64,000 nt of DNA, taken from assembly GCA_024742665.1 (NCBI GenBank), contig JANSYA010000001.1, positions 570,425-634,424 on the forward strand. Reading direction: 5' to 3'. The position numbers and the translations under genes were made by a program. The notes below the pieces were generated by a model. The model ran no database searches. It was not told the DNA's origin and worked only from the letters and a program-made list of their open reading frames with translations. Below, piece after piece: positions 11,472 to 24,906 of the stretch. The DNA is from a bacterium (GTDB lineage Bacteria; Spirochaetota; Leptospiria; Leptospirales; Leptonemataceae). The first letter of the stretch is position 1. Every line of letters begins with the position of its first letter.

Positions 11472-13304
11472 TCACTCGACTGTAACGGACTTCGCCAGGT
11501 TGCGGGGCTGATCGGGTTCGCAGCCGCGTTCGACGGCGACGTAGTACGCCAGCAATTGTAGCGGCAGCACAGTCAGCAGCGGGCTGAGCAGTTCCGAACA
11601 TTTCGGAATCGGAAAGGCGTAGTCGGACATCGACTGAATCTTTTCGTCGCCCTCGGTGTAGATCGAAATGATCTTGGCTTTACGCGCGCGGACCTCTTCG
11701 ATATTCGAAAGCATCTTTTCGTAGATATCGCCCTGGGGCGCGATGCAGACCACGGGCACTTCGTCCGTAATCAAGGCGATCGGTCCGTGCTTGAATTCGC
11801 CGCCGGCATAACCGGATGCGTGGATATAAGAAATCTCTTTTAGTTTGAGAGCGCCTTCCAGCGCGGTCGGATGGTTCCAGGAGCGTCCCAGGAAAACGAA
11901 GTCTTTCGTTTCGCGGAAGTCCTTCGCCCATTCTTTAATGACGTCGGCGCGTTCCAGAACGTGTTCCATCATTTCGGGCAGGCGTCGAACTTCTTCGAAG
12001 AGCTCCTGGCGTTCCTCTTTGCCGGTCAGCCACTTGATGCCGCCCACAAAGGTGGCGTACAGCAGCAGATGAATCAATTGCGCCGTATAGGCTTTGGTCG
12101 AAGCTACGCCGATCTCCGGCCCGGCCATCAGGTTGATGAAGGCGTCGGACTCGCGGGCGATCGTGGACTCGGGATTGTTCACGAACGAAAGCACGCGCAA
12201 GAATTTCGCTTTGGCTTCGTAGATGCCGGCGATCGTATCGGCGGTTTCGCCCGATTGGGAAATGGCGATGACTTTCGTGTCGCCCTCGGCGACCGGATTG
12301 CGATAGCGAAACTCCGAAGATAGATCGACTTCGGTGGCGACTTTCGTGAATCGTTCCAGATACATTTTGCCGACCATCCCGGCGTGCCAGGATGTTCCCG
12401 CGCTGGTGATAATCAGGCGGCTCAGGCGAATCAGAAAATCGTTCGAGCCGGCCTTTTCCGGAAAGTTGAGTTTGCCGTTGTCGCCGATGCGATGCTGAAT
12501 GATGCGGCGGAGCATGCCGGGCTGCTCGAAGATCTCTTTGAGCATGAAGTGTTCGTAGCCGCCCTTGTCCAGGTCGGCCGCTTTCACTTCGATCTTCTTC
12601 AGATCGTGAGGAACCGCTTCGCGCTCTTCGTTAAATACATGCAGTTCGTCTTTGGTAATCCAACCCCATTGACCGTTTTCGAAAATATAGTGTTCCCGTG
12701 CGAGAGGCACGACGGCCGGAACATCGCTGGCCAGAAAAGATTCGCCTGCGCCTTTGCCGTAAATCAGAGGCGAGCCGTCGCGCGCAAAGAAAATTCGATC
12801 CGGATCGCCGTCGTGCAGGAGGGCGAAGGAATACCGTCCGGTCAGTCGTTTGATTGTATCGAAGACGGCGTCTTCGATGCTTTTGCCGTCGCGCAGGGCC
12901 TGCTCGACCAGGTGCGGAATCACTTCCGTATCGGTTTCGGAGTGAAAGACGTGGCCTTCGCGCATGAGCTCATGACGCAGCTCGTAATGATTTTCGATGA
13001 TGCCGTTGTGGACGACCGCGATACGTTTCTTTTCGTCGACGTGCGGGTGGGCGTTGGTGCGATTCGCTTCCCCGTGGGTCGCCCAGCGAGTGTGGCCGAT
13101 GCCCATGCGACCTTCGACCGGGTGGTCTCGAAGCATGGATTCGAGAGCCTTGATCTTGCCTTTTTCTTTGCGAATATGCAGCTCGCCCTTGTCGAGCACG
13201 GCGACCCCGGCCGAGTCGTAGCCCCGGTATTCCAGGCGCGTCAGCCCCACAAGTAGTACTGAATCCACAGATTTCGGGCCGATATAGCCTACAATCCCAC
13301 ACAT
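11472..13304 (-). CDS. glmS: Glutamine--fructose-6-phosphate aminotransferase
   Basis: 610 aa. N-terminal MCGIVGYIG (Ntn amidotransferase Cys2), two SIS domains, C-terminus …AKSVTVE. Confidence 0.95.
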   Translation of the reverse strand: MCGIVGYIGPKSVDSVLLVGLTRLEYRGYDSAGVAVLDKGELHIRKEKGKIKALESMLRDHPVEGRMGIGHTRWATHGEANRTNAHPHVDEKKRIAVVHNGIIENHYELRHELMREGHVFHSETDTEVIPHLVEQALRDGKSIEDAVFDTIKRLTGRYSFALLHDGDPDRIFFARDGSPLIYGKGAGESFLASDVPAVVPLAREHYIFENGQWGWITKDELHVFNEEREAVPHDLKKIEVKAADLDKGGYEHFMLKEIFEQPGMLRRIIQHRIGDNGKLNFPEKAGSNDFLIRLSRLIITSAGTSWHAGMVGKMYLERFTKVATEVDLSSEFRYRNPVAEGDTKVIAISQSGETADTIAGIYEAKAKFLRVLSFVNNPESTIARESDAFINLMAGPEIGVASTKAYTAQLIHLLLYATFVGGIKWLTGKEERQELFEEVRRLPEMMEHVLERADVIKEWAKDFRETKDFVFLGRSWNHPTALEGALKLKEISYIHASGYAGGEFKHGPIALITDEVPVVCIAPQGDIYEKMLSNIEEVRARKAKIISIYTEGDEKIQSMSDYAFPIPKCSELLSPLLTVLPLQLLAYYVAVERGCEPDQPRNLAKSVTVE

Positions 13305-13577
13305 ATGCTACCACGGATTTGCAATACAGGCTTTCCTTCAACAACGAAAGGTCTCGAAATTTCCTCCATAGATATTTAGTGTGGCGGAAACGATACAGTC
13401 CGAAATAAAAGACCTTCCGGGAATTCGTCGACCGATCGGCCTGAATTCATACAGCGATGAAATCCTGTCACGGTCGGCCGACTCAGATCTCAAAATAGGT
13501 AGTTCCTGAAGCGCCTCTTTGGTTCCTTGCATACAGGGCATACAGGAAGCGCTATCGCGACCGCCCCCATCGCCATC

Positions 13578-14738
13578 ATGTCAACTTTTATCGCCGCCAC
13601 AGCGACCGCTCTGCCTTCGCACTATTATTCTCAAGACGAGCTGATCGGCGCGTTTCGTGAGATGTGGGCCGGACGCCATTACAACCTGGATCGCCTCGAA
13701 CAATTTCACCGCAACGTTTTGGTCGGCGGTCGCCATCTGGCCCTGACGATTCCGGAGTATTCCGCCCTGAAAGGCTTCGAAGAATCGAATGCCGCCTGGA
13801 CCCGGGTGGCTTTAGAACTTGGCGAAACCGTCGTGCGGGATTTGCTGGAGACGGCGGGCGTCTCGGCCGGCGAAATTCACGAACTTATTTTTACGACGAT
13901 TACCGGTCTGGCGGTTCCTTCGATCGATGCGCGTTTAATGAATCGCATCGATTTTTCGCCGGCTTTGAAGCGGGTCCCGCTCTTCGGTCTGGGCTGTCTC
14001 GCGGGGGCGGCGGGCGTCGCGCGATTGCATGACTATCTCGAAGGCCATCCGACCGAGGCGGGCATTCTGCTTTCCGTCGAGCTGTGCTCTTTGACTTTGC
14101 AGCGCGACGATTTCTCGATTCCGAATATTATCTCAAGCGGTCTGTTCGGAGACGGCGCCGCGGCGATCCTGATGACCGGCAGCGAACATCCCCTGGCCCG
14201 ACGCGCAGCCCGGAGCGAGGCCGGCAACGCTGCGAATGCGAACGGCGATGGCGATGCGAATCAGATTGCCGGAGTGCCGGTCGCGCGTTTGCCCGGGGTC
14301 GTCGACTCGCGCTCGATCTTTTTCCCGGATTCGGAGCGGGTCATGGGCTGGGATTTCGTCGACACGGGTTTTAAGATCGTGCTGTCTTCGGACGTCGCGC
14401 CTTTCGCACGCGAACATTTGCGTCCCGGTCTGGAAGCGTTCTTGCGCGAACACGGACTTGAGATTGACGACATCGAAACCTGGGTGGCGCATCCCGGCGG
14501 GCCGAAAGTAATCGAAGGTATGGCCGAAGGTCTGGGGCTGGAAGCGGACGCCCTGGCGCTTTCGCTCGACAGTCTGACGCGAGTCGGCAATCTATCTTCA
14601 GCGTCGGTGCTCTTTGTATTGCGCGAAACTCTGAAAACGAAATCGCCGTCGCCGGGCAGCTACGGAATTTTGCTGGCGATGGGGCCGGCGTTTTGCGCGG
14701 AGGCGGTGCTTCTGCGCTGGCCAGGATCCGGCGCATAA
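13578..14738 (+). CDS. Type III polyketide synthase (chalcone/stilbene synthase superfamily)
   Basis: From the internal Met MSTFIAATATALPSHYYSQDEL. Thiolase-fold KAS-III/CHS-like with active-site Cys context FGLGCLAGAAG and a C-terminal GFGPG-like region. Carries a ~30-aa Ala/Asn/Asp-rich insert (RRAARSEAGNAANANGDGDANQ). Confidence 0.85.
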   Translation: MSTFIAATATALPSHYYSQDELIGAFREMWAGRHYNLDRLEQFHRNVLVGGRHLALTIPEYSALKGFEESNAAWTRVALELGETVVRDLLETAGVSAGEIHELIFTTITGLAVPSIDARLMNRIDFSPALKRVPLFGLGCLAGAAGVARLHDYLEGHPTEAGILLSVELCSLTLQRDDFSIPNIISSGLFGDGAAAILMTGSEHPLARRAARSEAGNAANANGDGDANQIAGVPVARLPGVVDSRSIFFPDSERVMGWDFVDTGFKIVLSSDVAPFAREHLRPGLEAFLREHGLEIDDIETWVAHPGGPKVIEGMAEGLGLEADALALSLDSLTRVGNLSSASVLFVLRETLKTKSPSPGSYGILLAMGPAFCAEAVLLRWPGSGA

Positions 14739-14791
14739 ACGATACGAGGCCGCGGCCCTGAGGATGGACCGCGCTGCCGTTCACGGATACA

Positions 14792-15406
14792 ATGTTTACG
14801 ACCACGCAATATATTTTTTTCGCGATCGTCGCGCTGATGATCGTGCAGCGTTTGCTGGAACTCCGGCATTCGAAAAAGAACGAAGCCGCGATGATCGCCC
14901 GGGGCGGGCGCGAACATTCGCCAGGCCACTTTCAGTTTATGAAGCTGGTCCATACGTTTTGGTTCGTCGCCATGATCGCCGAAGTCGCGCTGCTGGATCG
15001 CAGTCTGGATTCGAATTTAGATTGGACGATCGCGATTATCGCCCTTGCCGCGACGCTGATCGGCCAGCTCCTGCGTTACGCCGCGATTCGCACGCTTGGT
15101 CCGCGCTGGTCCGTGCGGATCATGACCGTGCCGAATTCGCCGGCTGTCTCCGGCGGCGTCTATCGTTATATCCGACATCCGAATTATCTGGGAGTCATTC
15201 TCGAAATCGCCGCCGTGCCTCTGATTCACGGCGCGTATATTACGGCGATTGTATTTACAATTCTGAATGCGATGGTGTTATGGATTCGTATCGGGGCCGA
15301 AGAGCGCGCTCTGAATCTGGAAAACGGCAGCGACTACGATCAGCGTCTGGCGGGCCGCTCACGTTTCGTCGGGCTTCAAAAATCCGGCTCGGACGGAGAC
15401 GGCTGA
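14792..15406 (+). CDS. Isoprenylcysteine carboxyl methyltransferase (ICMT)-family membrane methyltransferase (BpsB/SrsB-like)
   Basis: 204 aa, multi-TM. C-terminal motif YRYIRHPNYLGVILEIAAVPLIHGAY…EERAL is diagnostic for the ICMT/PEMT family. Immediately downstream of the type III PKS, as in the bpsAB/srsAB pairs. Confidence 0.75.
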   Translation: MFTTTQYIFFAIVALMIVQRLLELRHSKKNEAAMIARGGREHSPGHFQFMKLVHTFWFVAMIAEVALLDRSLDSNLDWTIAIIALAATLIGQLLRYAAIRTLGPRWSVRIMTVPNSPAVSGGVYRYIRHPNYLGVILEIAAVPLIHGAYITAIVFTILNAMVLWIRIGAEERALNLENGSDYDQRLAGRSRFVGLQKSGSDGDG

Positions 15407-15468
15407 AGCGCTGAGTTTCTATTCGCAATCGTAAATCGCTGAATAATAATCGCCAAATATCAAACATC

Positions 15469-15720
15469 ATGGATCGCAAAGAAATAGAACAGGCCGTGGC
15501 CGACGTGCTGCGAACGCACTGCAACGTTACAAAAGAGATTCGCGCCGAATCGCGCCTGGCGGAAGATCTCGGCCTGGATTCGGTTGGTCTGCTGACTATG
15601 GCCGTCGAAGTTGAGAATCATTTCCAGACGGTGCTGGGCGAAGAGCCGGAGCGCCCGCCGCGTACAGTCCATGCGGTCGTCGACCTGATCGAGCAGCGCC
15701 TAACGGAACGTAAGCTTTAA
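15469..15720 (+). CDS. Acyl carrier protein
   Basis: 83 aa; LAEDLGLDSVGLLTMAVEVENHF contains the DSx phosphopantetheine attachment Ser in a four-helix ACP-like context. Confidence 0.8.
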   Translation: MDRKEIEQAVADVLRTHCNVTKEIRAESRLAEDLGLDSVGLLTMAVEVENHFQTVLGEEPERPPRTVHAVVDLIEQRLTERKL

Positions 15721-15729
15721 TTTAAGCAA

Positions 15730-17517
15730 ATGGACGACCAGAAGAAAGCCACTCTCGACGAAATCGCAGACGGCGTGCAAACATTGCCGCAAGCGCTGCA
15801 GGCCGCCGGCTCCGAGGGCGATTGCGGAGTGCATTTTTTTTCGAGAAGCGGCACTGTGGAAAGCCACACGTACTCGGAACTCTATCGCGACTCGCGCAGT
15901 CTGGCGTCGGTGCTGATCGCGGACTATCATCTGCGCCCCGGCGATTCGGTCGCGCTGATCATGTCCACTTCGTACGATCTTGTGCGCGCGCTCTTCGCGG
16001 TGTTGATGGCGCGTGCGACCCCGACCTGTCTGCCGACGCCGCGCCTTGGCCGAATGGCGGACTATCAAGGGGCGACCGCTGCGATGCTTCAGGCCGCCGG
16101 TGCGAAGCTGGTCTTAACCGAAGCGAACTCCGTTAAGAATTTGACGAACATCGTCGCCGCGGTTTCGCCTGCGCCGGCCCTTGCGGCGGTTTCTGAAATT
16201 GTAGCGCCGGACGCTCCGGAAGCTGTGGCGGCTTCGGCGAGCGAAGACGAGGTGGCTCTCGCGGACGAGCTGGCTCTCGAAGACGAGCTGGCGCTCGAAG
16301 ACGAGCTGGCGCTAATTCAATTCTCGAGCGGCACGACCGTTGCGCCGAAACCCGTCGCCTTGACCCACAAAAATATTCTGAGCAATACGCGCTCGATTCT
16401 CGCGAGCTTTCCCGGGGACATTCGCGAGCAGAGTGGTTGCTCCTGGCTGCCTTTGCATCACGACATGGGATTGATCGGCGGACTCTTCGCGGCGGTCGTC
16501 GCCCGGGGCGACATGACTTTCTTGCGACCGGAAGATTTTATCGCGCGGCCGGGAGCCTGGCTGCGAGCTCTCAGTCAGAGCAAAGCTTCGATTTGTCCCG
16601 CTCCGAATTTCGCGCTTCAGATTTGCATCGATCGCGTGCGCGACGAAGAGCTTGCGGAACTGGATTTGAGTCACTGGAAGATCGCGCTGATCGGCGCGGA
16701 GACGGTGCGCGAACCGACCCTGCGCAGATTTTATGAACGCTTTGAGTCGACCGGTTTTCGCTACGAAAGTTTTACGCCGGTGTACGGTCTGGCCGAGGCG
16801 ACCCTGGCCGTGACTTTCAGCGACGTGGAGCGTGCGCCCTCTGGCGTGCGCGTCGATCGCGAGAGTCTGGGCCGGGGCGAAATCCATCTGGCGCATGACG
16901 ACGCGCACGGCGTCGACGTCGTGAGCGTGGGGCGGCCCTTAAGCGGCATTGATCTGGAGTTACGCGACGAAAGCGGCCACGTCCTCGGCGAAGATCGCGT
17001 GGGGCGGATTTTCGTGCGGGGCGATTGCGTCATGGCCGGCTACTTTCGCCGCCCGGACGCGACGGCCGCCGCCGTGCAGGACGGCTGGTTGAATACCGGC
17101 GATCTGGGTTTTATTCACCAGGATGAACTCTTTATCTACGGCCGCGAACGCGACATCATCATATTAAACGGCCGCAACCACGATCCCCAGACGATCGAAT
17201 TCGCCATCGACCAGGTGCCGGGTCTTGATCATGACCGAAGCGCGGCCGTGCCGATTGACGATCCCGATCGAGGCACCGAGAGCTTTGTGGTATTAGTCGA
17301 AAAAGAAAAGGGCCAGGCCCCCGGCGGTCTGGACGCGCTCGCCCAAACCGCGCGCGAAGCCATCATTGCGGAAACCGGTTTGCTGCCGGAGCTGGTAGCC
17401 GTGCTGGCCACCGGTCGTCTGCCGCGCACGACCAGCGGTAAAATCAAACGCGGCGCCGCGCGCAGCCAGTTTTTGGCCGGCGAGCTGGAGCTACTGGCGG
17501 AAAGCCGCCGCTCATGA
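15730..17517 (+). CDS. Fatty acyl-AMP ligase / long-chain acyl-CoA synthetase family (adenylate-forming enzyme)
   Basis: 595 aa. AMP-binding motif I FSSGTTVAPKPVALTHKNI; downstream A-domain motifs YGLAEAT and …TGDLGF…, C-terminal Lys. Contains an Asp/Glu/Ala/Leu-rich insert encoded by an 18-bp tandem DNA repeat. Confidence 0.8.
   Translation: MDDQKKATLDEIADGVQTLPQALQAAGSEGDCGVHFFSRSGTVESHTYSELYRDSRSLASVLIADYHLRPGDSVALIMSTSYDLVRALFAVLMARATPTCLPTPRLGRMADYQGATAAMLQAAGAKLVLTEANSVKNLTNIVAAVSPAPALAAVSEIVAPDAPEAVAASASEDEVALADELALEDELALEDELALIQFSSGTTVAPKPVALTHKNILSNTRSILASFPGDIREQSGCSWLPLHHDMGLIGGLFAAVVARGDMTFLRPEDFIARPGAWLRALSQSKASICPAPNFALQICIDRVRDEELAELDLSHWKIALIGAETVREPTLRRFYERFESTGFRYESFTPVYGLAEATLAVTFSDVERAPSGVRVDRESLGRGEIHLAHDDAHGVDVVSVGRPLSGIDLELRDESGHVLGEDRVGRIFVRGDCVMAGYFRRPDATAAAVQDGWLNTGDLGFIHQDELFIYGRERDIIILNGRNHDPQTIEFAIDQVPGLDHDRSAAVPIDDPDRGTESFVVLVEKEKGQAPGGLDALAQTAREAIIAETGLLPELVAVLATGRLPRTTSGKIKRGAARSQFLAGELELLAESRRS
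16244..16315. repeat. In-frame 18-bp tandem repeat (gacgagctggc(t/g)ctcgaa ×~3.5) encoding (D/E)ELAL(E/A) units in the FAAL gene
   Basis: Units at 16265-16282, 16283-16300 and a partial unit 16301-16315, plus a related degenerate unit 16244-16264. Protein reads ALADELALEDELALEDELALIQ. Confidence 0.8.
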
Positions 17518-18839
17518 GCGCGGCCCGTGAATACCAGGCTGTGATTGTCGGCGGCGGACCGGCCGGGCTTGCCGCGGGGATCGTGCTGGCTCGCAGCGGA
17601 ATTTCGACGCTGCTCTTAGAAAGGCGGACATTGCCCTACGCGAAAGTTTGCGGCGAAGGTCTGATGCCTGTGGGACTGCGGGCTCTGGAAAGTCTGGGGG
17701 TGGATCTTTCGCAATCGCCGAACGAAGTCGGCCTGCCCTTTCGGGGCATTCGATATCGCGACTGCGGAACCGGTCGCGCGGCGGAGGCGGATTTCGCCGA
17801 AGGTCCGGGGCGCGGTGTGCCTCGCAGAATTCTCGCGGCGCGTTTGCTCGCCGCCGCAAAACAGCATGAGCTGCTCGAAATTCGCGACGGCGTTTTGTGC
17901 GAAGCTTTGCGGCGCACAGCGGACGGCGCCTGGGAAATTCGAGCCGGCGAAAGCGTCTTTCGCGCGTCGCTTTTGATCGGCGCGGACGGCATTCATAGCT
18001 TCGCGCGCCGGGCCGCAAGGCTTGATCGAGATAGTGCGCGCAATGATCCGCGGCGCTGGGGCGCGCGCTGGCACTTTCCGATTGCGCCCTGGACCGACGG
18101 CTTCGTTGAAGTGCGTCTTCTGGCGCAGACGCCCGGAGTGGAATGTTATATTACGCCGGTCGGCGAACATGAAACCGGCGTGGCCTTTTTGTGGGACCGC
18201 CAGAGTTTTCGACCGGCCGGCGGCGATACTCTGCTTGCGTCTTTGCTGGCGATCTTTCCCGAAGTTGCCGCGCGAGTGCGGGATCTCACGCCGCTGAGCG
18301 ACGGCGGGGCGATCGGTCCGCTGCTGCATCGCACGCGGGCGGTGAGCGGGTCGGGCGTCGCTTTGATCGGCGATGCCGCGGGCTATCTGGACGCCGCGAC
18401 CGGCGAAGGCCTGAGTCTGGCCTTCGAGGCGGCGCTCGCTCTGGAGAACACGGTTGTGCCGGCGCTCGGTGCAGCGGCACGATCGAATGCTTCGAATGTG
18501 GCGAGTGGGGCGAATGAATCGGAGGCAGCGTCAAGCGCGGCTGCGGCTATCGGTGCGATGGCAACGGACGCTCGCGCCTGCAGACGACGCGAGCTGGATC
18601 GGGCCCTGCGGGCGTACTCCCGGGAGCACCGGCGCATTACCGCGAATTATTATCTGACGACGCGGCTGGTTTTGTGGCTCGGTCGCCGGCCGCGCTGGAT
18701 GCGTCGGGTTATCGCGGGATTGGGAGCGAGCCCGGCTTTCTTTCAGCGAGTGCTGTCGGTGAACATGGGCACGCGCGGCGTCTTTGCAGTAAGCCCTGGC
18801 GCCCTCTTAAGATTTCTTAAGGGATTAAGGGCGCATTAA
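17514..18839 (+). CDS. FAD-dependent oxidoreductase (geranylgeranyl-reductase / flavin monooxygenase family, SrsC-like)
   Basis: N-terminal Rossmann dinucleotide motif VIVGGGPAGLAAGIVLARSGISTLLLER. GD-type FAD motif LIGDAAGYLDAATGEGL. Start codon overlaps the FAAL stop (ATGA). Ala/Ser-rich low-complexity insert near the C-terminus. Confidence 0.75.
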   Translation: MSAAREYQAVIVGGGPAGLAAGIVLARSGISTLLLERRTLPYAKVCGEGLMPVGLRALESLGVDLSQSPNEVGLPFRGIRYRDCGTGRAAEADFAEGPGRGVPRRILAARLLAAAKQHELLEIRDGVLCEALRRTADGAWEIRAGESVFRASLLIGADGIHSFARRAARLDRDSARNDPRRWGARWHFPIAPWTDGFVEVRLLAQTPGVECYITPVGEHETGVAFLWDRQSFRPAGGDTLLASLLAIFPEVAARVRDLTPLSDGGAIGPLLHRTRAVSGSGVALIGDAAGYLDAATGEGLSLAFEAALALENTVVPALGAAARSNASNVASGANESEAASSAAAAIGAMATDARACRRRELDRALRAYSREHRRITANYYLTTRLVLWLGRRPRWMRRVIAGLGASPAFFQRVLSVNMGTRGVFAVSPGALLRFLKGLRAH

Positions 18840-18853
18840 GCGCGTCAGGCGCG

Positions 18854-19771
18854 TTAAGGAAATCTTGAATCGTATCGTTTGTTGATGCGATCCGCTTCGG
18901 CGCTCGTCCGATTCTCGGCGGTATCTGCGGCATCGCCGTCTTCGTCGGCCCTGTCAGGATCCTGATCCGATTTTTCGCCCGATTTTTGATGCGTTTTTTG
19001 ATATTCTTTTTGGTGCGCTCGCAGATCGACGATGATCTTTAGCATCACCCAGACGCCCGCCAGAGTCGTAATGGCCTGGCCCGGAAACATCTGCGAGAAA
19101 CCGACAAGAGCGAAGGCGCCCAGGATGATCGTCAGATGCATGAGGATGATGCGACCGTAGGGTTTTGCGAAGAGGTCCATCACGCCGGTGGCGTAGTATT
19201 CGCGGCCGCGGATAAAATGCACGAAAAACGAAACGCCGTGACTGCCGATCAGGCCGGCTACGCCGATGGCAATCGGACTGCCGATGATTTGCCTGAAACC
19301 GCACTCGCCCGCGGCGATGACTTCCGGACCGCAGCCCAGCAGATTGGAAAGTTTGTCCGCGCCGATGAGCTCGGCTGGATTGTTCGCGCCGCTTCCGACC
19401 GCGGCGGCGATTTCGGGCATGAAGGTCAGAAAGACCGCGTGCCCGGCCATGAAACCGCCGAAGTGGGCGCAGAAAAACGCGCCCAGGGGAATCATACCGA
19501 GGAGCGCGATTGGTTGAAAGGCACCGGTCTTGCTATGGGAAATCGCCATCGACATCGCGATCAGATTGATGACGCCGATGATCGCGCTTTCCGCCCAGTA
19601 GATCCAGAGGATCTCCATCACCGACCATTCGAAAAAAAGCACTCCGAGCAGCGGCAGCAGATTGCCGACGACTAAGGCCAGGCCGGTGATCTTCGGATTG
19701 CGGCTGCCGGCGGCCAGAAATGGAAAGGCGATGACCAGCAGACGAAAGAGCAGGTGCGTGGAACGGTTCAT
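18854..19771 (-). CDS. Polytopic integral membrane protein (hypothetical)
   Basis: 305 aa, about 8 predicted TM helices, acidic C-terminal tail. Convergent with the PKS cluster; no diagnostic motif. Confidence 0.45.
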   Translation of the reverse strand: MNRSTHLLFRLLVIAFPFLAAGSRNPKITGLALVVGNLLPLLGVLFFEWSVMEILWIYWAESAIIGVINLIAMSMAISHSKTGAFQPIALLGMIPLGAFFCAHFGGFMAGHAVFLTFMPEIAAAVGSGANNPAELIGADKLSNLLGCGPEVIAAGECGFRQIIGSPIAIGVAGLIGSHGVSFFVHFIRGREYYATGVMDLFAKPYGRIILMHLTIILGAFALVGFSQMFPGQAITTLAGVWVMLKIIVDLRAHQKEYQKTHQKSGEKSDQDPDRADEDGDAADTAENRTSAEADRINKRYDSRFP

Positions 19772-19813
19772 AGGAAAGTGTTACGGCCTGGCGTGCTTTG
19801 CCGCGCACGAAGC

Positions 19814-20680
19814 TTAGCGTTTCAGGTCCTTCAAAAAGTCGGCGAAGGCCGCTTCGTATCGTTTTTTGGAAACCAGAAAAGCGTCGTTGTGGCCGCCTTG
19901 AATTTCAAGTAAAGTTTTGCGTTTCGTACGGGCGGCCGCATGCAGCCGTTCGGCGTGAGCAAAGGGCACCAGGCGATCCTGTCGACCGTGAATGATCAGC
20001 ACGGGCAAATCCTCGCCGTTCACATCTTTCAGCGCGTGCGTGCGCAGTCGTTCCAGGCTTTCGAAGCGGTTGCGGGCTAATAGCGAAACCGGTAAGAACC
20101 AATAAACTTCGGCGCCGACGTCCACCGCGGAGGTAAAGGTGGATTCCAGAATCAGCGCCCGGGCCGGTCGTCGCGCGGCCAGATCGACGGCCATGGCCCC
20201 GCCCAGGGATCGTCCGAAATACAGCACGCGCTCCGCAGGAATCTTCAGAGTGTTCCGGAGATAGTCCAGGGCGGCATGGGCGTCGGCGTATAGACCGGCT
20301 TCGTCTGGAATCCCTGTGCTCTCGCCGTAGCCGCGATAGTCGTAGATGAATACCGAAATTCCCAGTTGGTGCAGCTGGCGCAAAGACCTCAGGTTGTGCG
20401 AAAGATTGCCCGCGTTTCCGTGGGAGTACAGCAGCACGAACGATGACGATTCGTCCGGGGATTCTTCCGCGGCCGGTAAGTACCAGGCGTGCAAGCGCTC
20501 GCCGGTCGGAGTCGGGACCCTGTGTTCCTGCACCGAAAGTCCGTAGTCGGCCGGCGCGTAGGCGTGCCGGCGAATCGGATGGTAGGTCAGTTGGTCCTGG
20601 ATTGAATAGACGTAGGCGTTGAGAGCGGCGTACGACAGGCCGATCGCCGCGAGCAAGGACAGGAGAATTTTTCGAAACAT
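19814..20680 (-). CDS. Secreted alpha/beta hydrolase (COG1073-like)
   Basis: Start at the Met of MFRKILLSLLAAIGLSYAA (signal peptide); the longer ORF would abut the asnS start. Motifs LLYSHGNAGN, nucleophile elbow GRSLGG, downstream catalytic D/H. Confidence 0.7.
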   Translation of the reverse strand: MFRKILLSLLAAIGLSYAALNAYVYSIQDQLTYHPIRRHAYAPADYGLSVQEHRVPTPTGERLHAWYLPAAEESPDESSSFVLLYSHGNAGNLSHNLRSLRQLHQLGISVFIYDYRGYGESTGIPDEAGLYADAHAALDYLRNTLKIPAERVLYFGRSLGGAMAVDLAARRPARALILESTFTSAVDVGAEVYWFLPVSLLARNRFESLERLRTHALKDVNGEDLPVLIIHGRQDRLVPFAHAERLHAAARTKRKTLLEIQGGHNDAFLVSKKRYEAAFADFLKDLKR

Positions 20681-20736
20681 ACAGGCGGCGCTTAAAAAAA
20701 CTTGTCTTCGCGCATGCTTGAAGCGCACCATCAATT

Positions 20737-22302: not shown

Positions 22303-24906
22303 ATGCACTCGATCAATAATAGAAATTATCGGCCGCAGCCGCCTTCGCCTTCCGCGGCGGAGCGGCGGACTCTACCGCTCTGGCGGCGCCTGCATATTCA
22401 GTGGCGCGCCTGGTTTTCCAGCGTTGATCCGCGATACGAATCCGTGTATCTGGAGTGCATGCAAATCATTCGCGACGAGCCGCAGCTGCAATTGCAGTCG
22501 ATCTTTTTTGGAATCTACGATGAGCTGGAAAAGACCGGCGATGAAGAAGCGCTGCGCCAGTTCGCCGAGAGTGGACTGGAAGACGAATCCGGTCGGCGCT
22601 ATCGTTATTTTCACGCCGCCGTCGCCGTAAAAAACTTCTGGGAAGAATGGGGGGCCATGCGCCTTTCGGGCCGGCAGCATCTGGCCGACATTCGCGGCGA
22701 TCGTCCCGGCTCGATGGCTTACGATTATTTCTTTCGCGCGGGCCGCGACGGTTCCAGCAGCCCGTATCAGATCCAGGATCGCGCGGCGATGGCGGGCTAT
22801 GTTGTCAAAAGCATGCAGCTGGACGATTCAGCGTCCACGCGGGGCTGGGTGCGTCGTCTGGCGCTCCTCTTGTGCGGCAACAAACATCAGCGCCTGGCGC
22901 GCATGCTGCTATGGGTCAATCAGGCGCGAATTTTTCACACCGTCGACGTGCGCGATTCGGACCCGCGCGAAGAGCTCGAAGCCGACGCGCCGGTCCAGTC
23001 GAAGCGCATCGGTTTGATTATGTTTGTTTCGAAGCGGCGCGAGCTGCCGCCGGAGCTGATCGAGGCTGCGGCCTTTCGACTGCGCTGCACATTTTATGAT
23101 TCGCATTTGATTCGCTCAAGAGCGAAGCGGGCTCTGAAGATTCGCGATGAGATGTTTTTGAGTCTGGTCAGCACTATGCCGATCGGTCAAATCGTTCACG
23201 ATTCGCAGCAGGTCCTGTTCGCCAATCCAGCGGCGCTCAAGCTGCTGGGCGCGACGCGGATGGACGAAGTCGCGCGTCGGCCGCTGATGGAACTCGTCGA
23301 TCCGGAGTATCGCGAAAAAGTCTGGGAGCGCGTGCGACTGCTGCGAAACTCTCCGACCGGTACGAGTGTCGACTTGATGGACGAACGATTGACTCGTATC
23401 GACGGCACGCCGATCGACGTCGAGGTCATGGGGGTGCGCGTCGATTATTTCGGCACGGACGCCATTCAGATTATCTTTCGTGACATCAGCGATCGCAAGC
23501 GCATGGAGAACGAGCGCGAACGCCATCGCCTCTACGATTCTCTGACGGGCTTGCCGAACCGCTCGCTCTTTCTGGACCGCCTCGACCAGGCGATCTTGCG
23601 CGCGCAGACCGGGACGCCCGGCGCGGCGAATGCGGGCGCCGCCCGGGAGGAGGAGGATATCGACAGTCCCGCTTTTGGCGGCGAAGCGCCGGCGATTACC
23701 GGACAGGCGTACTCGGGACCGCTGATCGGCGTGCTCTATATAGACATCGATAATTTTCGACAGGTCAACGATCTCTTTCAGTTTCAGGCCGGCGATGAGT
23801 TGCTTTGCGAAATTACAGCGCGAATGGAGCAGTTCGTGCCGTCGGAGTTTACTTTCTCGCGGCTGACCGGCGACAAGTTCTGCGTTTTTCTGCCGCATAT
23901 CGAAGGAACGGAGCAGGCGGTCTTCTTCGCGGAAGGCATGCAGGATCTCTTTCGATTGAAACCCTTCGAAGTTCGCGGCGAGCAAATCCCGCTGACCTTC
24001 AGCGCGGGCATTTCATTTTATCCGATCGACGGCAGCACCGCTTCCGAGCTGCTCAGTCAGTGCGAGGTGGCTCTGGCTCGCGCGAAGCGCAACAAGAATC
24101 AGCTGCAGTTGTATAACCGGGCTATGAACGTGCGCACCGCGGCCCTTTTCGAATTGGAAAAGGATTTGCTGCGGGCGATGTCGGCCAACGAATTTCTGGT
24201 GTACTTTCAGCCTCAGGTCGATTCGCGGCTGGGGATCGTTCGCGGCGTGGAAGCTCTGATCCGCTGGAACCATCCCGAGCGGGGCATTGTCTCTCCGGGG
24301 GAGTTCATTGTAATCGCGGAAGAGCGCGGGCTGATTCTGGAAATCGGCGAGTGGATGCTCGAAGAATCTCTGGCGCAAATCCGGCGCTGCCATCTTGACG
24401 GCGCGCCCGATCTGGAACTGTCGGTGAATGTCACGCCGCGGCAGCTGGAACATCCGGAATTCGTGAATATGGTTCGGAGCCGCATTCGACGCACGGATGT
24501 AGATCCGGAGCTGTTGAAATTTGAAATCGTCGAGCGGGGCATTGTCGAAGAAAACGAGCGAGTGCGTCGCGCTATGAACGAGCTGGCCGGCATTGGCATT
24601 CGCTTTCACGTCGACGATTTCGGAACCGGCGGCGCGGCGATTACCTATCTGCGTAATTTCCCGATCGATACGATTAAGGTCGACAAGTCTTTCGTGCAGG
24701 ATCTCGAAAGACACGAAGGCCTGGTGCGCGGTCTGGTGGCCTTCGCGGAAAACCTGGGTTTACAAACAATCGTGGAAGGAGTCGAGACGCGCGAGCAGCT
24801 CGACTTTTTCGAAGCCCTTGGATGTCGTTATTACCAGGGTTTCTATTTCGCGCGACCGATGCCTTCGAGCGAGTGCAGCGACTTCATTAGAAACTTCAAG
24901 ATCTGA
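22303..24906 (+). CDS. Multidomain c-di-GMP signalling protein: unknown N-terminal domain, PAS, degenerate GGDEF, EAL phosphodiesterase
   Basis: PAS-like segment …IVHDSQQVLFANPAALKLLGAT…IIFRDISDRK. GGDEF fold with RLTGDKFCVF in place of RYGGEEF, i.e. a degenerate cyclase site. EAL domain with EALIRWNHPERG, DDFGTG and Q.G.YF. The N-terminal ~280 aa are unassigned. Confidence 0.85.
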   Translation: MHSINNRNYRPQPPSPSAAERRTLPLWRRLHIQWRAWFSSVDPRYESVYLECMQIIRDEPQLQLQSIFFGIYDELEKTGDEEALRQFAESGLEDESGRRYRYFHAAVAVKNFWEEWGAMRLSGRQHLADIRGDRPGSMAYDYFFRAGRDGSSSPYQIQDRAAMAGYVVKSMQLDDSASTRGWVRRLALLLCGNKHQRLARMLLWVNQARIFHTVDVRDSDPREELEADAPVQSKRIGLIMFVSKRRELPPELIEAAAFRLRCTFYDSHLIRSRAKRALKIRDEMFLSLVSTMPIGQIVHDSQQVLFANPAALKLLGATRMDEVARRPLMELVDPEYREKVWERVRLLRNSPTGTSVDLMDERLTRIDGTPIDVEVMGVRVDYFGTDAIQIIFRDISDRKRMENERERHRLYDSLTGLPNRSLFLDRLDQAILRAQTGTPGAANAGAAREEEDIDSPAFGGEAPAITGQAYSGPLIGVLYIDIDNFRQVNDLFQFQAGDELLCEITARMEQFVPSEFTFSRLTGDKFCVFLPHIEGTEQAVFFAEGMQDLFRLKPFEVRGEQIPLTFSAGISFYPIDGSTASELLSQCEVALARAKRNKNQLQLYNRAMNVRTAALFELEKDLLRAMSANEFLVYFQPQVDSRLGIVRGVEALIRWNHPERGIVSPGEFIVIAEERGLILEIGEWMLEESLAQIRRCHLDGAPDLELSVNVTPRQLEHPEFVNMVRSRIRRTDVDPELLKFEIVERGIVEENERVRRAMNELAGIGIRFHVDDFGTGGAAITYLRNFPIDTIKVDKSFVQDLERHEGLVRGLVAFAENLGLQTIVEGVETREQLDFFEALGCRYYQGFYFARPMPSSECSDFIRNFKI

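Follow-up and report, generated by a model that had tools for sequence, protein, structure and literature searches.

What would a bacterium of the spirochaete phylum make with a type III polyketide synthase (PKS) that has its own set of fatty-acid-activating partners encoded beside it? The question is raised by a stretch of DNA of 64,000 nucleotides, here called the window (assembly GCA_024742665.1, contig JANSYA010000001.1, positions 570,425 to 634,424 of the forward strand), which comes from a metagenome-assembled genome (MAG) of the Leptospirales and has a GC content of about 58% throughout. On its plus strand lie genes for a type III PKS (13578..14738, 386 aa), an ICMT-family integral-membrane methyltransferase of the SrsB/FtpB type dependent on S-adenosylmethionine (14792..15406), a stand-alone acyl carrier protein (ACP; 15469..15720, 83 aa), a fatty acyl-AMP ligase (FAAL; 15730..17517, 595 aa) and a FAD-dependent flavoprotein of the SrsC/PkqC/FtpE type, the presumed ring hydroxylase (17514..18839, 441 aa). 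In our view this cluster is very probably a phenolic-lipid operon of the ftp type, built around an srsABC/pkqABC core module.

An earlier annotation of the window, made from its letters without database searches and called here the original prediction, had proposed a PKS-based phenolic-lipid cluster of the srsABC/bpsAB kind to which a FAAL and an ACP would supply the starter. The proposal agrees with what we observe in the domain identities, the catalytic residues (the PKS triad and the ACP serine), the score of the methyltransferase against its family, the FAAL-specific insertion, the gene order and the conservation of the genes as a unit.

The Five-Gene Unit and Its Conservation

The five genes are all read in one direction, with junctions of 53, 62 and 9 bp followed by a 4-bp ATGA overlap that joins the FAAL stop to the flavoprotein start; the gaps of 0–60 bp and the ATGA overlap described in the original prediction come close to these measured values (53, 62, 9 and −4 bp). 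Profile searches, which had been suggested as a check, gave a significant match of each of the five proteins to the expected family.

How far this arrangement is conserved was surveyed in 80 species-representative loci with a PKS related to that of the window. Identical order and orientation of all five genes recurs in about 30 of the 80 loci, which is far beyond chance and bears out the expectation that the genes are conserved together. The PKS-ICMT-FMO arrangement (FMO standing for the flavoprotein gene) was found in about 18 loci and PKS-ICMT only in about 19, some of these last being incomplete, while a few apparent PKS-ACP-ICMT orders were an artefact of stop-to-stop segment starts. The ICMT gene lies directly 3' of the PKS gene in more than 70 of the loci, and a hidden Markov model built from ACPs of such clusters located, in loci where tblastn had missed it, an ACP gene flanked by those for the ICMT and the FAAL.

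The five-gene form is present in at least nine phylum-level groups: Spirochaetota (Leptospirales), Planctomycetota, Myxococcota, Bacteriovoracaceae, Gemmatimonadota, Acidobacteriota, Vulcanimicrobiota, Xenobia and Burkholderiales. In an unbootstrapped neighbour-joining (NJ) tree of the PKS this architecture falls into at least four clades, and the window sequence groups with those of the loci L001 and L016 (Leptospirales) and L006 (Leptospiraceae), a Planctomycetota MAG and Chloroflexota sequences. Distances between loci, taken pairwise for PKS, ICMT and FAAL, correlate with one another (Spearman 0.52–0.58, Mantel p about 0.001) and the nearest relatives of the window are the same loci for all four enzymes, from which it follows that the genes evolve together.

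The Polyketide Synthase

The longest open reading frame (ORF) of the PKS gene runs from TTG 13527, which had earlier been taken as its start. This start is ruled out, and ATG 13578 (386 aa) is almost certainly the correct one, because the PKS homologues all begin at the Met equivalent to ATG 13578, a publicly available annotation of the identical contig likewise has a protein of 386 aa, and the DNA alignment of the window with L001 contains frame-breaking indels between the two codons.

The protein matches the Pfam families Chal_sti_synt_N (6.3e-13) and Chal_sti_synt_C (6.4e-17), and its best solved relatives are Pks11 of Mycobacterium tuberculosis (4jao, 7e-86) and CylI (2e-74). The Cys-His-Asn triad, whose absence would have spoken against the original prediction, is present as Cys157/His322/Asn355 in the numbering of the long ORF (140/305/338 from ATG 13578), aligned to the Pks11 triad and invariant in 31 homologues. 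Cys157 aligns with a residue that is Ser in 4jat, the sole difference between 4jao and 4jat seen in the aligned sequences. Equally invariant in the 31 homologues is Trp275 (258 from ATG 13578), which aligns with W230 of Pks11; the corresponding Trp of ArsB (W281) is reported to be essential for resorcinol formation and is conserved in FtpA, SrsA, PKS10 and PKS11 (PMC5916927; PMC9927152). The predicted product of the PKS is an alkylresorcylic acid or an alkylresorcinol.

The same enzyme might instead close its ring by lactonisation, so that the cluster would yield alkylpyrone methyl ethers in the manner of bpsAB and not resorcinol-derived quinones. In vitro, type III PKSs of the clade to which the window enzyme belongs often form tri- and tetraketide pyrones mixed with resorcinols, Pks11 itself is named 'alpha-pyrone synthesis polyketide synthase-like', MMAR_2470 makes pyrones only (PMC12329547), and two-gene PKS-ICMT loci are common among the relatives. 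We nevertheless consider a pyrone product quite unlikely, given that the Trp that marks resorcinol formers (ArsB W281, Pks11 W230; PMC5916927; PMC9927152) is present and invariant and that a ring-modifying flavoprotein is co-conserved with the PKS, as it is in srs and pkq, two operons that form quinones.

The Carrier Protein and the Fatty Acyl-AMP Ligase

The ACP matches PF00550 at 7.9e-6 (26.5 bits, cut-off 20.8), and its phosphopantetheine-attachment residue, Ser38 in the motif LGLDSVG, is kept in all 13 of the 13 aligned homologues. The phosphopantetheinyl transferase that would modify it must come from elsewhere in the genome. The FAAL gene begins 9 bp beyond the end of the ACP gene, and its product has an AMP-binding domain (9.2e-57) with the core motifs FSSGTTVAPK (198), YGLAEAT (352), TGDLG (456) and SGK571IKR. 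The 18 best matches of this protein in the PDB are all FAALs or FAAL-type loading domains (7r7f, 3kxw, 3pbk and FadD23/32/28 on top), and among the NCBIfam models NF006624, 'fatty acyl-AMP ligase', fits it best (1e-124, 417 bits).

FAALs can be told from acyl-CoA ligases by an insertion, and the presence of this insertion had been named as a further check on the cluster. A MAFFT alignment against the genuine acyl-CoA ligase FadD of E. coli (L081 in our set) places it at about residues 370–396 (16837..16917, plus strand), a stretch of 27 residues that has no counterpart in FadD, is present in the FAALs of related clusters and aligns with the matching stretch of the FAAL 7r7f. By these sequence features the adenylating enzyme is of the FAAL class and not an acyl-CoA ligase. 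For a FAAL-ACP pair of Myxococcus xanthus the loading of fatty acid has been demonstrated in vitro (PMC8460268).

It could be argued that the FAAL and the ACP serve some other pathway, such as the acylation of a lipid or lipopeptide, and are mere neighbours of an srsABC-like trio that uses acyl-CoA. The srsABC, pkqABC and hidABC systems work without a dedicated FAAL or ACP, many of the relatives are without both genes, and stand-alone FAALs are known in other lipid contexts (PMC12820801). In the window, however, the two genes are interleaved between those of the methyltransferase and the flavoprotein, with junctions of 9 and −4 bp; this interleaved order recurs in about 30 genomes of at least nine phylum-level groups, the FAAL distances track those of the PKS, and in M. 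xanthus there is a precedent for the direct hand-over from FAAL to ACP to PKS (PMC5707447). A separate pathway for the two proteins is in our opinion very improbable.

The Methyltransferase and the Flavoprotein

The second protein of the cluster, with its 4–5 hydrophobic segments, scores 97 bits against the ICMT family (PF04140, 8.6e-28) as against 36 bits for PEMT. Its best solved relative is Ma-ICMT (4a2n), with which the motifs RHPNY (128) and EE (170–171) align. Together with the position of its gene beside that of the PKS in nearly all relatives, these scores remove the concern that the enzyme might be a phospholipid methyltransferase of the PEMT type.

The flavoprotein matches FAD_binding_3 (6.5e-18) and carries the motifs GGGPAG (13), GADGIHS (156) and IGDAAGY (285). 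It aligns over its full core, FAD motifs included, with the flavoproteins of PKS-ICMT-FMO loci of Streptomyces, Kitasatospora and Mycobacterium; the core identity to this third gene is 36–44%, the loci being srsABC-like by architecture and S. griseus SrsC itself lying outside the set. Its AlphaFold model has a pLDDT of 95. The protein is already present in NCBI nr as "MAG: FAD-dependent monooxygenase [bacterium]".

Relation to Known Systems

The closest known system is the ftp operon of M. xanthus, which was reportedly characterised by Hayashi et al. (2011, ChemBioChem 12:2166). Its genes reportedly encode the PKS FtpA, the FAAL FtpD, a cognate ACP, a methyltransferase and a monooxygenase. FtpA accepts the acyl-ACP made by FtpD (PMC5707447), and an M. 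xanthus alkylresorcylic-acid cluster with the same ORF organisation was the antiSMASH match of a cluster in an acidobacterial associate of Moorea (PMC5006271). The window thus shares with ftp the same five functions and the mechanism by which a FAAL supplies a type III PKS through an ACP (PMC5707447), as well as the organisation described in PMC5006271. In the Myxococcaceae/Archangiaceae loci of our survey (L019, L011 and L017) the order PKS-ICMT-ACP-FAAL-FMO is identical to that of the window. At the level of sequence, every feature that would mark an ftp-type cluster is found in the window.

These publications, and the wide phylogenetic spread of the five-gene form, also overturn the earlier suggestion that the starter-supply addition is not a textbook arrangement (FtpA/FtpD, PMC5707447; the acidobacterium, PMC5006271). 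The window differs from ftp in its host, a MAG of the spirochaete phylum, and in its PKS, which lies in a different NJ clade together with Leptospirales, Planctomycetota MAG and Chloroflexota sequences.

A further difference from ftp lies in the lineage-specific low-complexity inserts of the PKS, FAAL and flavoprotein. The insert of the PKS (about 14187–14285) comprises some 30 residues rich in Ala, Asn and Gly and is common only to L001. In the FAAL gene an in-frame tandem repeat of 18 bp in 3.8 copies (16242..16310, plus strand, TRF score 110) is translated into DELALE-like units within a variable loop that precedes the P-loop motif; the repeat is unique to the window, being missing from L001, L016 and the other homologues, among which the length of the loop varies. 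In the flavoprotein about 30 residues rich in Ala and Ser are inserted (about 18465–18563), which the model places in a long helix with lower pLDDT. All three inserts lie in variable loops and are probably neutral.

With srsABC and pkqABC the window shares a PKS, an ICMT-family methyltransferase and a FAD flavoprotein in the same relative order, and the window PKS has the Trp that marks resorcinol formation. Identities to the Streptomyces, Kitasatospora and Mycobacterium loci are 47–50% for the PKS, 37–44% for the methyltransferase and about 40% for the core of the flavoprotein. Those operons, by contrast, have no FAAL or ACP and draw on acyl-CoA or starters derived from fatty acid synthase (FAS), and their flavoproteins, of about 337 aa, are without the long C-terminal helical extension of the window protein. 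In the window the ACP and FAAL genes are inserted between those of the methyltransferase and the flavoprotein, and it therefore represents the extended, or ftp, form.

Other relatives are more distant in organisation. The bpsAB operon of Bacillus subtilis likewise has a type III PKS gene followed by one for a membrane methyltransferase, and BpsA is reported to take acyl-ACP (PMC5707447); as described, however, it includes neither a flavoprotein nor a dedicated FAAL/ACP pair, and its products include alkylpyrone methyl ethers. The alkylresorcinol and alkylpyrone PKSs of Azotobacter vinelandii arsABCD also take their starter from a carrier protein and not from CoA (PMC5707447). Unlike the window, arsABCD has no ICMT or flavoprotein genes. 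Its starter comes from a dedicated type I FAS and not from a FAAL with an ACP; no type I FAS or PKS gene was found in or next to the window cluster, the neighbours being glmS, fpg, DUF6498, hydrolase and aminoacyl-tRNA synthetase (aaRS) genes. In cyanobacterial hidABC and a planctomycete operon the same three functions lead to methylated and hydroxylated alkylresorcinols (PMC6836626; PMC10896814), but by description the order is the opposite one (methyltransferase, oxidoreductase, PKS last), FAAL and ACP are missing, and the family and the regiochemistry of the methyltransferase may differ from those of the window.

Points against the Assignment

A number of observations weigh against the ftp-type reading. 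The host is known as a MAG, and the product and the enzyme activities are read from the genes alone. The operon status is inferred from the spacing of the genes, and a scan for promoters and terminators over 13200–19900 gave counts no higher than in shuffled sequence. The comparison with ftp was made through Myxococcaceae/Archangiaceae MAG proxies (L019 and L011), to which identity is only 39–50%. Neither of the central enzymes falls into an exact functional family: the PKS scores under the NCBIfam equivalog cut-offs, and the 417 bits of the FAAL against NF006624 are below the cut-off of 600 bits. In the related planctomycete operon, moreover, the methyltransferase appears to carry out C-methylation and not O-methylation (PMC10896814).

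The remaining points concern the flavoprotein, which is most likely a ring hydroxylase but forms the least certain step of the pathway, the only basis for its hydroxylase chemistry being the precedent of SrsC. Among NCBIfam models it comes closest to that of the geranylgeranyl-reductase superfamily, TIGR02032 (residues 8–307), at 90.7 bits against a cut-off of 158.8, and a Foldseek search found a fold of the PHBH type about equally like phenol and pyrrole halogenases, PqsL, 3nix, geranylgeranyl reductase, UbiH and squalene epoxidase (TM 0.6–0.72).

On this basis the enzyme might be a reductase resembling geranylgeranyl reductase, some other oxidoreductase or a halogenase, acting on the chain or the ring, in which case the pathway would end at a methylated alkylresorcinol instead of a quinone. 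The TIGR02032 match is one ground for such a view, as is the level standing of 3oz2 (a geranylgeranyl reductase) and phenol halogenases with monooxygenases in the Foldseek ranking. Another is the motif K-x-C-G-E-G (residues 44–49), invariant in 70 flavoprotein homologues, which appears similar to the CGEG signature of geranylgeranyl reductases. The source annotations of the homologues vary between monooxygenase, oxidoreductase and, in some cases, 'menaquinone-9 beta-reductase', and the equivalent oxidoreductase of the planctomycete operon has as yet no settled function (PMC10896814). On the other side, the TIGR02032 score is well under the cut-off and Foldseek ranks geranylgeranyl reductase no higher than monooxygenases or halogenases, and by these measures the protein does not qualify for the geranylgeranyl-reductase family; the halogenase motif WxWxIP is not conserved in the family consensus; and the flavoprotein aligns with those of the actinomycete PKS-ICMT-FMO operons, which are reported to give benzoquinones (PMC9927152). 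We keep to a ring hydroxylase because the core is homologous to the third gene of these quinone-forming operons, and regard a different activity of the flavoprotein as unlikely.

A Proposed Pathway

If the cluster works as an ftp-type operon, the FAAL would adenylate a free long-chain fatty acid and, since it is a FAAL and not an acyl-CoA ligase, would transfer the activated chain to the neighbouring ACP, at the phosphopantetheine carried by its Ser38, as homology and the precedent of FtpD and FtpC suggest. The PKS would load the acyl group from acyl-ACP onto Cys140 (counted from ATG 13578) and extend it with three units of malonyl-CoA, or possibly methylmalonyl-CoA, and an aldol ring closure aided by Trp258 would give the alkylresorcylic acid or alkylresorcinol. 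The ICMT-family enzyme would then methylate the ring. SrsB, its precedent, reportedly acts by decarboxylative methylation of alkylresorcylic acid, and a decarboxylative O-methylation of this kind would lead to an alkylresorcinol methyl ether. Hydroxylation of the ring by the flavoprotein would produce a methoxy-alkylhydroquinone expected to auto-oxidise to an alkyl-methoxy-benzoquinone; in the srsABC system of S. griseus the methyltransferase and the hydroxylase turn an alkylresorcinol into a benzoquinone (PMC9927152; PMC6669644). This chemistry, like the chain length, the regiochemistry and the physiological role of the pathway, is what we infer from the better studied relatives.

The product would stay in the membrane, where it would be a phenolic lipid with a structural or protective function or else an electron-carrying polyketide quinone. 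Phenolic lipids of the cell envelope are documented in work on S. griseus and Azotobacter. In hypoxic biofilms of mycobacteria and in Streptomyces spores, polyketide quinones serve as alternate carriers of electrons (PMC9927152; PMC12329547). Nothing in the window sequence discriminates between the envelope-lipid and the electron-carrier role.

Genomic Setting

The species-level genome nearest to the window is that of L001, a Leptospirales MAG, whose PKS, glmS and aaRS are 85%, 93% and 90% identical to those of the window; further matches are L016 (Leptospirales) and L006 (Leptospiraceae). One slot, between glmS and a gene for a tRNA synthetase of the Asp/Asn type, houses the cluster in the window as well as in L001 and L016, and the wider neighbourhood is made up of housekeeping genes (glutamyl-tRNA synthetase, a tRNA methyltransferase and Fpg). 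The GC content of the five genes and their GC content at third codon positions (GC3) are broadly like those of the flanking housekeeping genes. A recent horizontal acquisition, which we considered, is unsupported: because the slot is shared and GC and GC3 resemble those of the flanks, the cluster appears as a settled chromosomal trait of the lineage and not a recent island.

The original prediction had called such a cluster unusual in a Leptospira-like genome. This is true only to a small degree, as at least three other Leptospirales/Leptospiraceae MAGs carry the cluster, two of them in the same slot. In the literature searched, we found no paper that describes it for the Leptospirales, and a search for work linking type III PKS to Leptospira or Leptospirales gave nothing beyond incidental co-mentions. 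Given its broad distribution across phyla, its occurrence in the Leptospirales is only mildly surprising.

The promoter and the 5' untranslated region of the operon presumably lie in the divergent intergenic region between glmS, on the minus strand, and the PKS gene (13305..13577). A sigma-70 scan gave nothing useful in this region upstream of the PKS, and an Rfam search of it was without match. Blocks of it are kept in L001 and partly in L016, for example AGTGTG.CG.A..GATACAGT, GAAATCCTGTCACG and TCAAAATAGGTAGTTCC, and a 9-bp direct repeat, GCATACAGG, occurs twice at 13529–13546; these blocks and the repeat may be promoter or regulatory sites. A 216-aa ORF in another frame of the plus strand (14764–15414) covers the ICMT gene from end to end; no family match supports it, and in all likelihood it is an artefact of high GC.

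At the 3' side two genes on the minus strand converge on the cluster, one for a polytopic membrane protein with DUF6498 (18854–19771) and one for an alpha/beta hydrolase with an N-terminal hydrophobic segment (19814–20734). They had been put forward as possible export or tailoring partners, the hydrolase as a secreted protein. This idea finds no support, and the two genes are rejected as members of the cluster for lack of co-conservation: they are kept only in L001, not in L016, L006 or the other phyla, and in their place unrelated genes are found, selD/selU-like ones in L016 and genes for an acyltransferase and NhaA in L006. The L016 pair, two convergent genes judged SelD- and SelU-like by eye from their translations, lies at 12930–15052 of that locus, between the cluster and the aaRS gene. 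Just 3' of the aaRS gene of the window a large PAS-GGDEF-EAL signalling protein is encoded (22303–24906, plus strand), apparently unrelated to the cluster.

Significance

The cluster is known in kind, and with it the hosts of such operons come to include an uncultured lineage of the Leptospirales; it opens no new mechanism or class of system. The survey indicates that the form extended by FAAL and ACP is common across phyla and that its genes travel as one unit. For the organism itself one may speculate that a chromosomal trait kept vertically in the glmS-aaRS slot turns scavenged free fatty acids, by way of the FAAL, into a methoxy-alkylbenzoquinone that acts as an alternative respiratory electron carrier, or as a phenolic lipid of the envelope; we hold this full scenario to be tentative and rather doubtful. 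If it were true, no such lipid, whether respiratory quinone or envelope phenolic lipid, would have been reported from the spirochaete phylum before, and a demonstration that the product is a respiratory polyketide quinone, or an envelope lipid made from scavenged fatty acids, would give a modest insight into the physiology of spirochaete-phylum bacteria.

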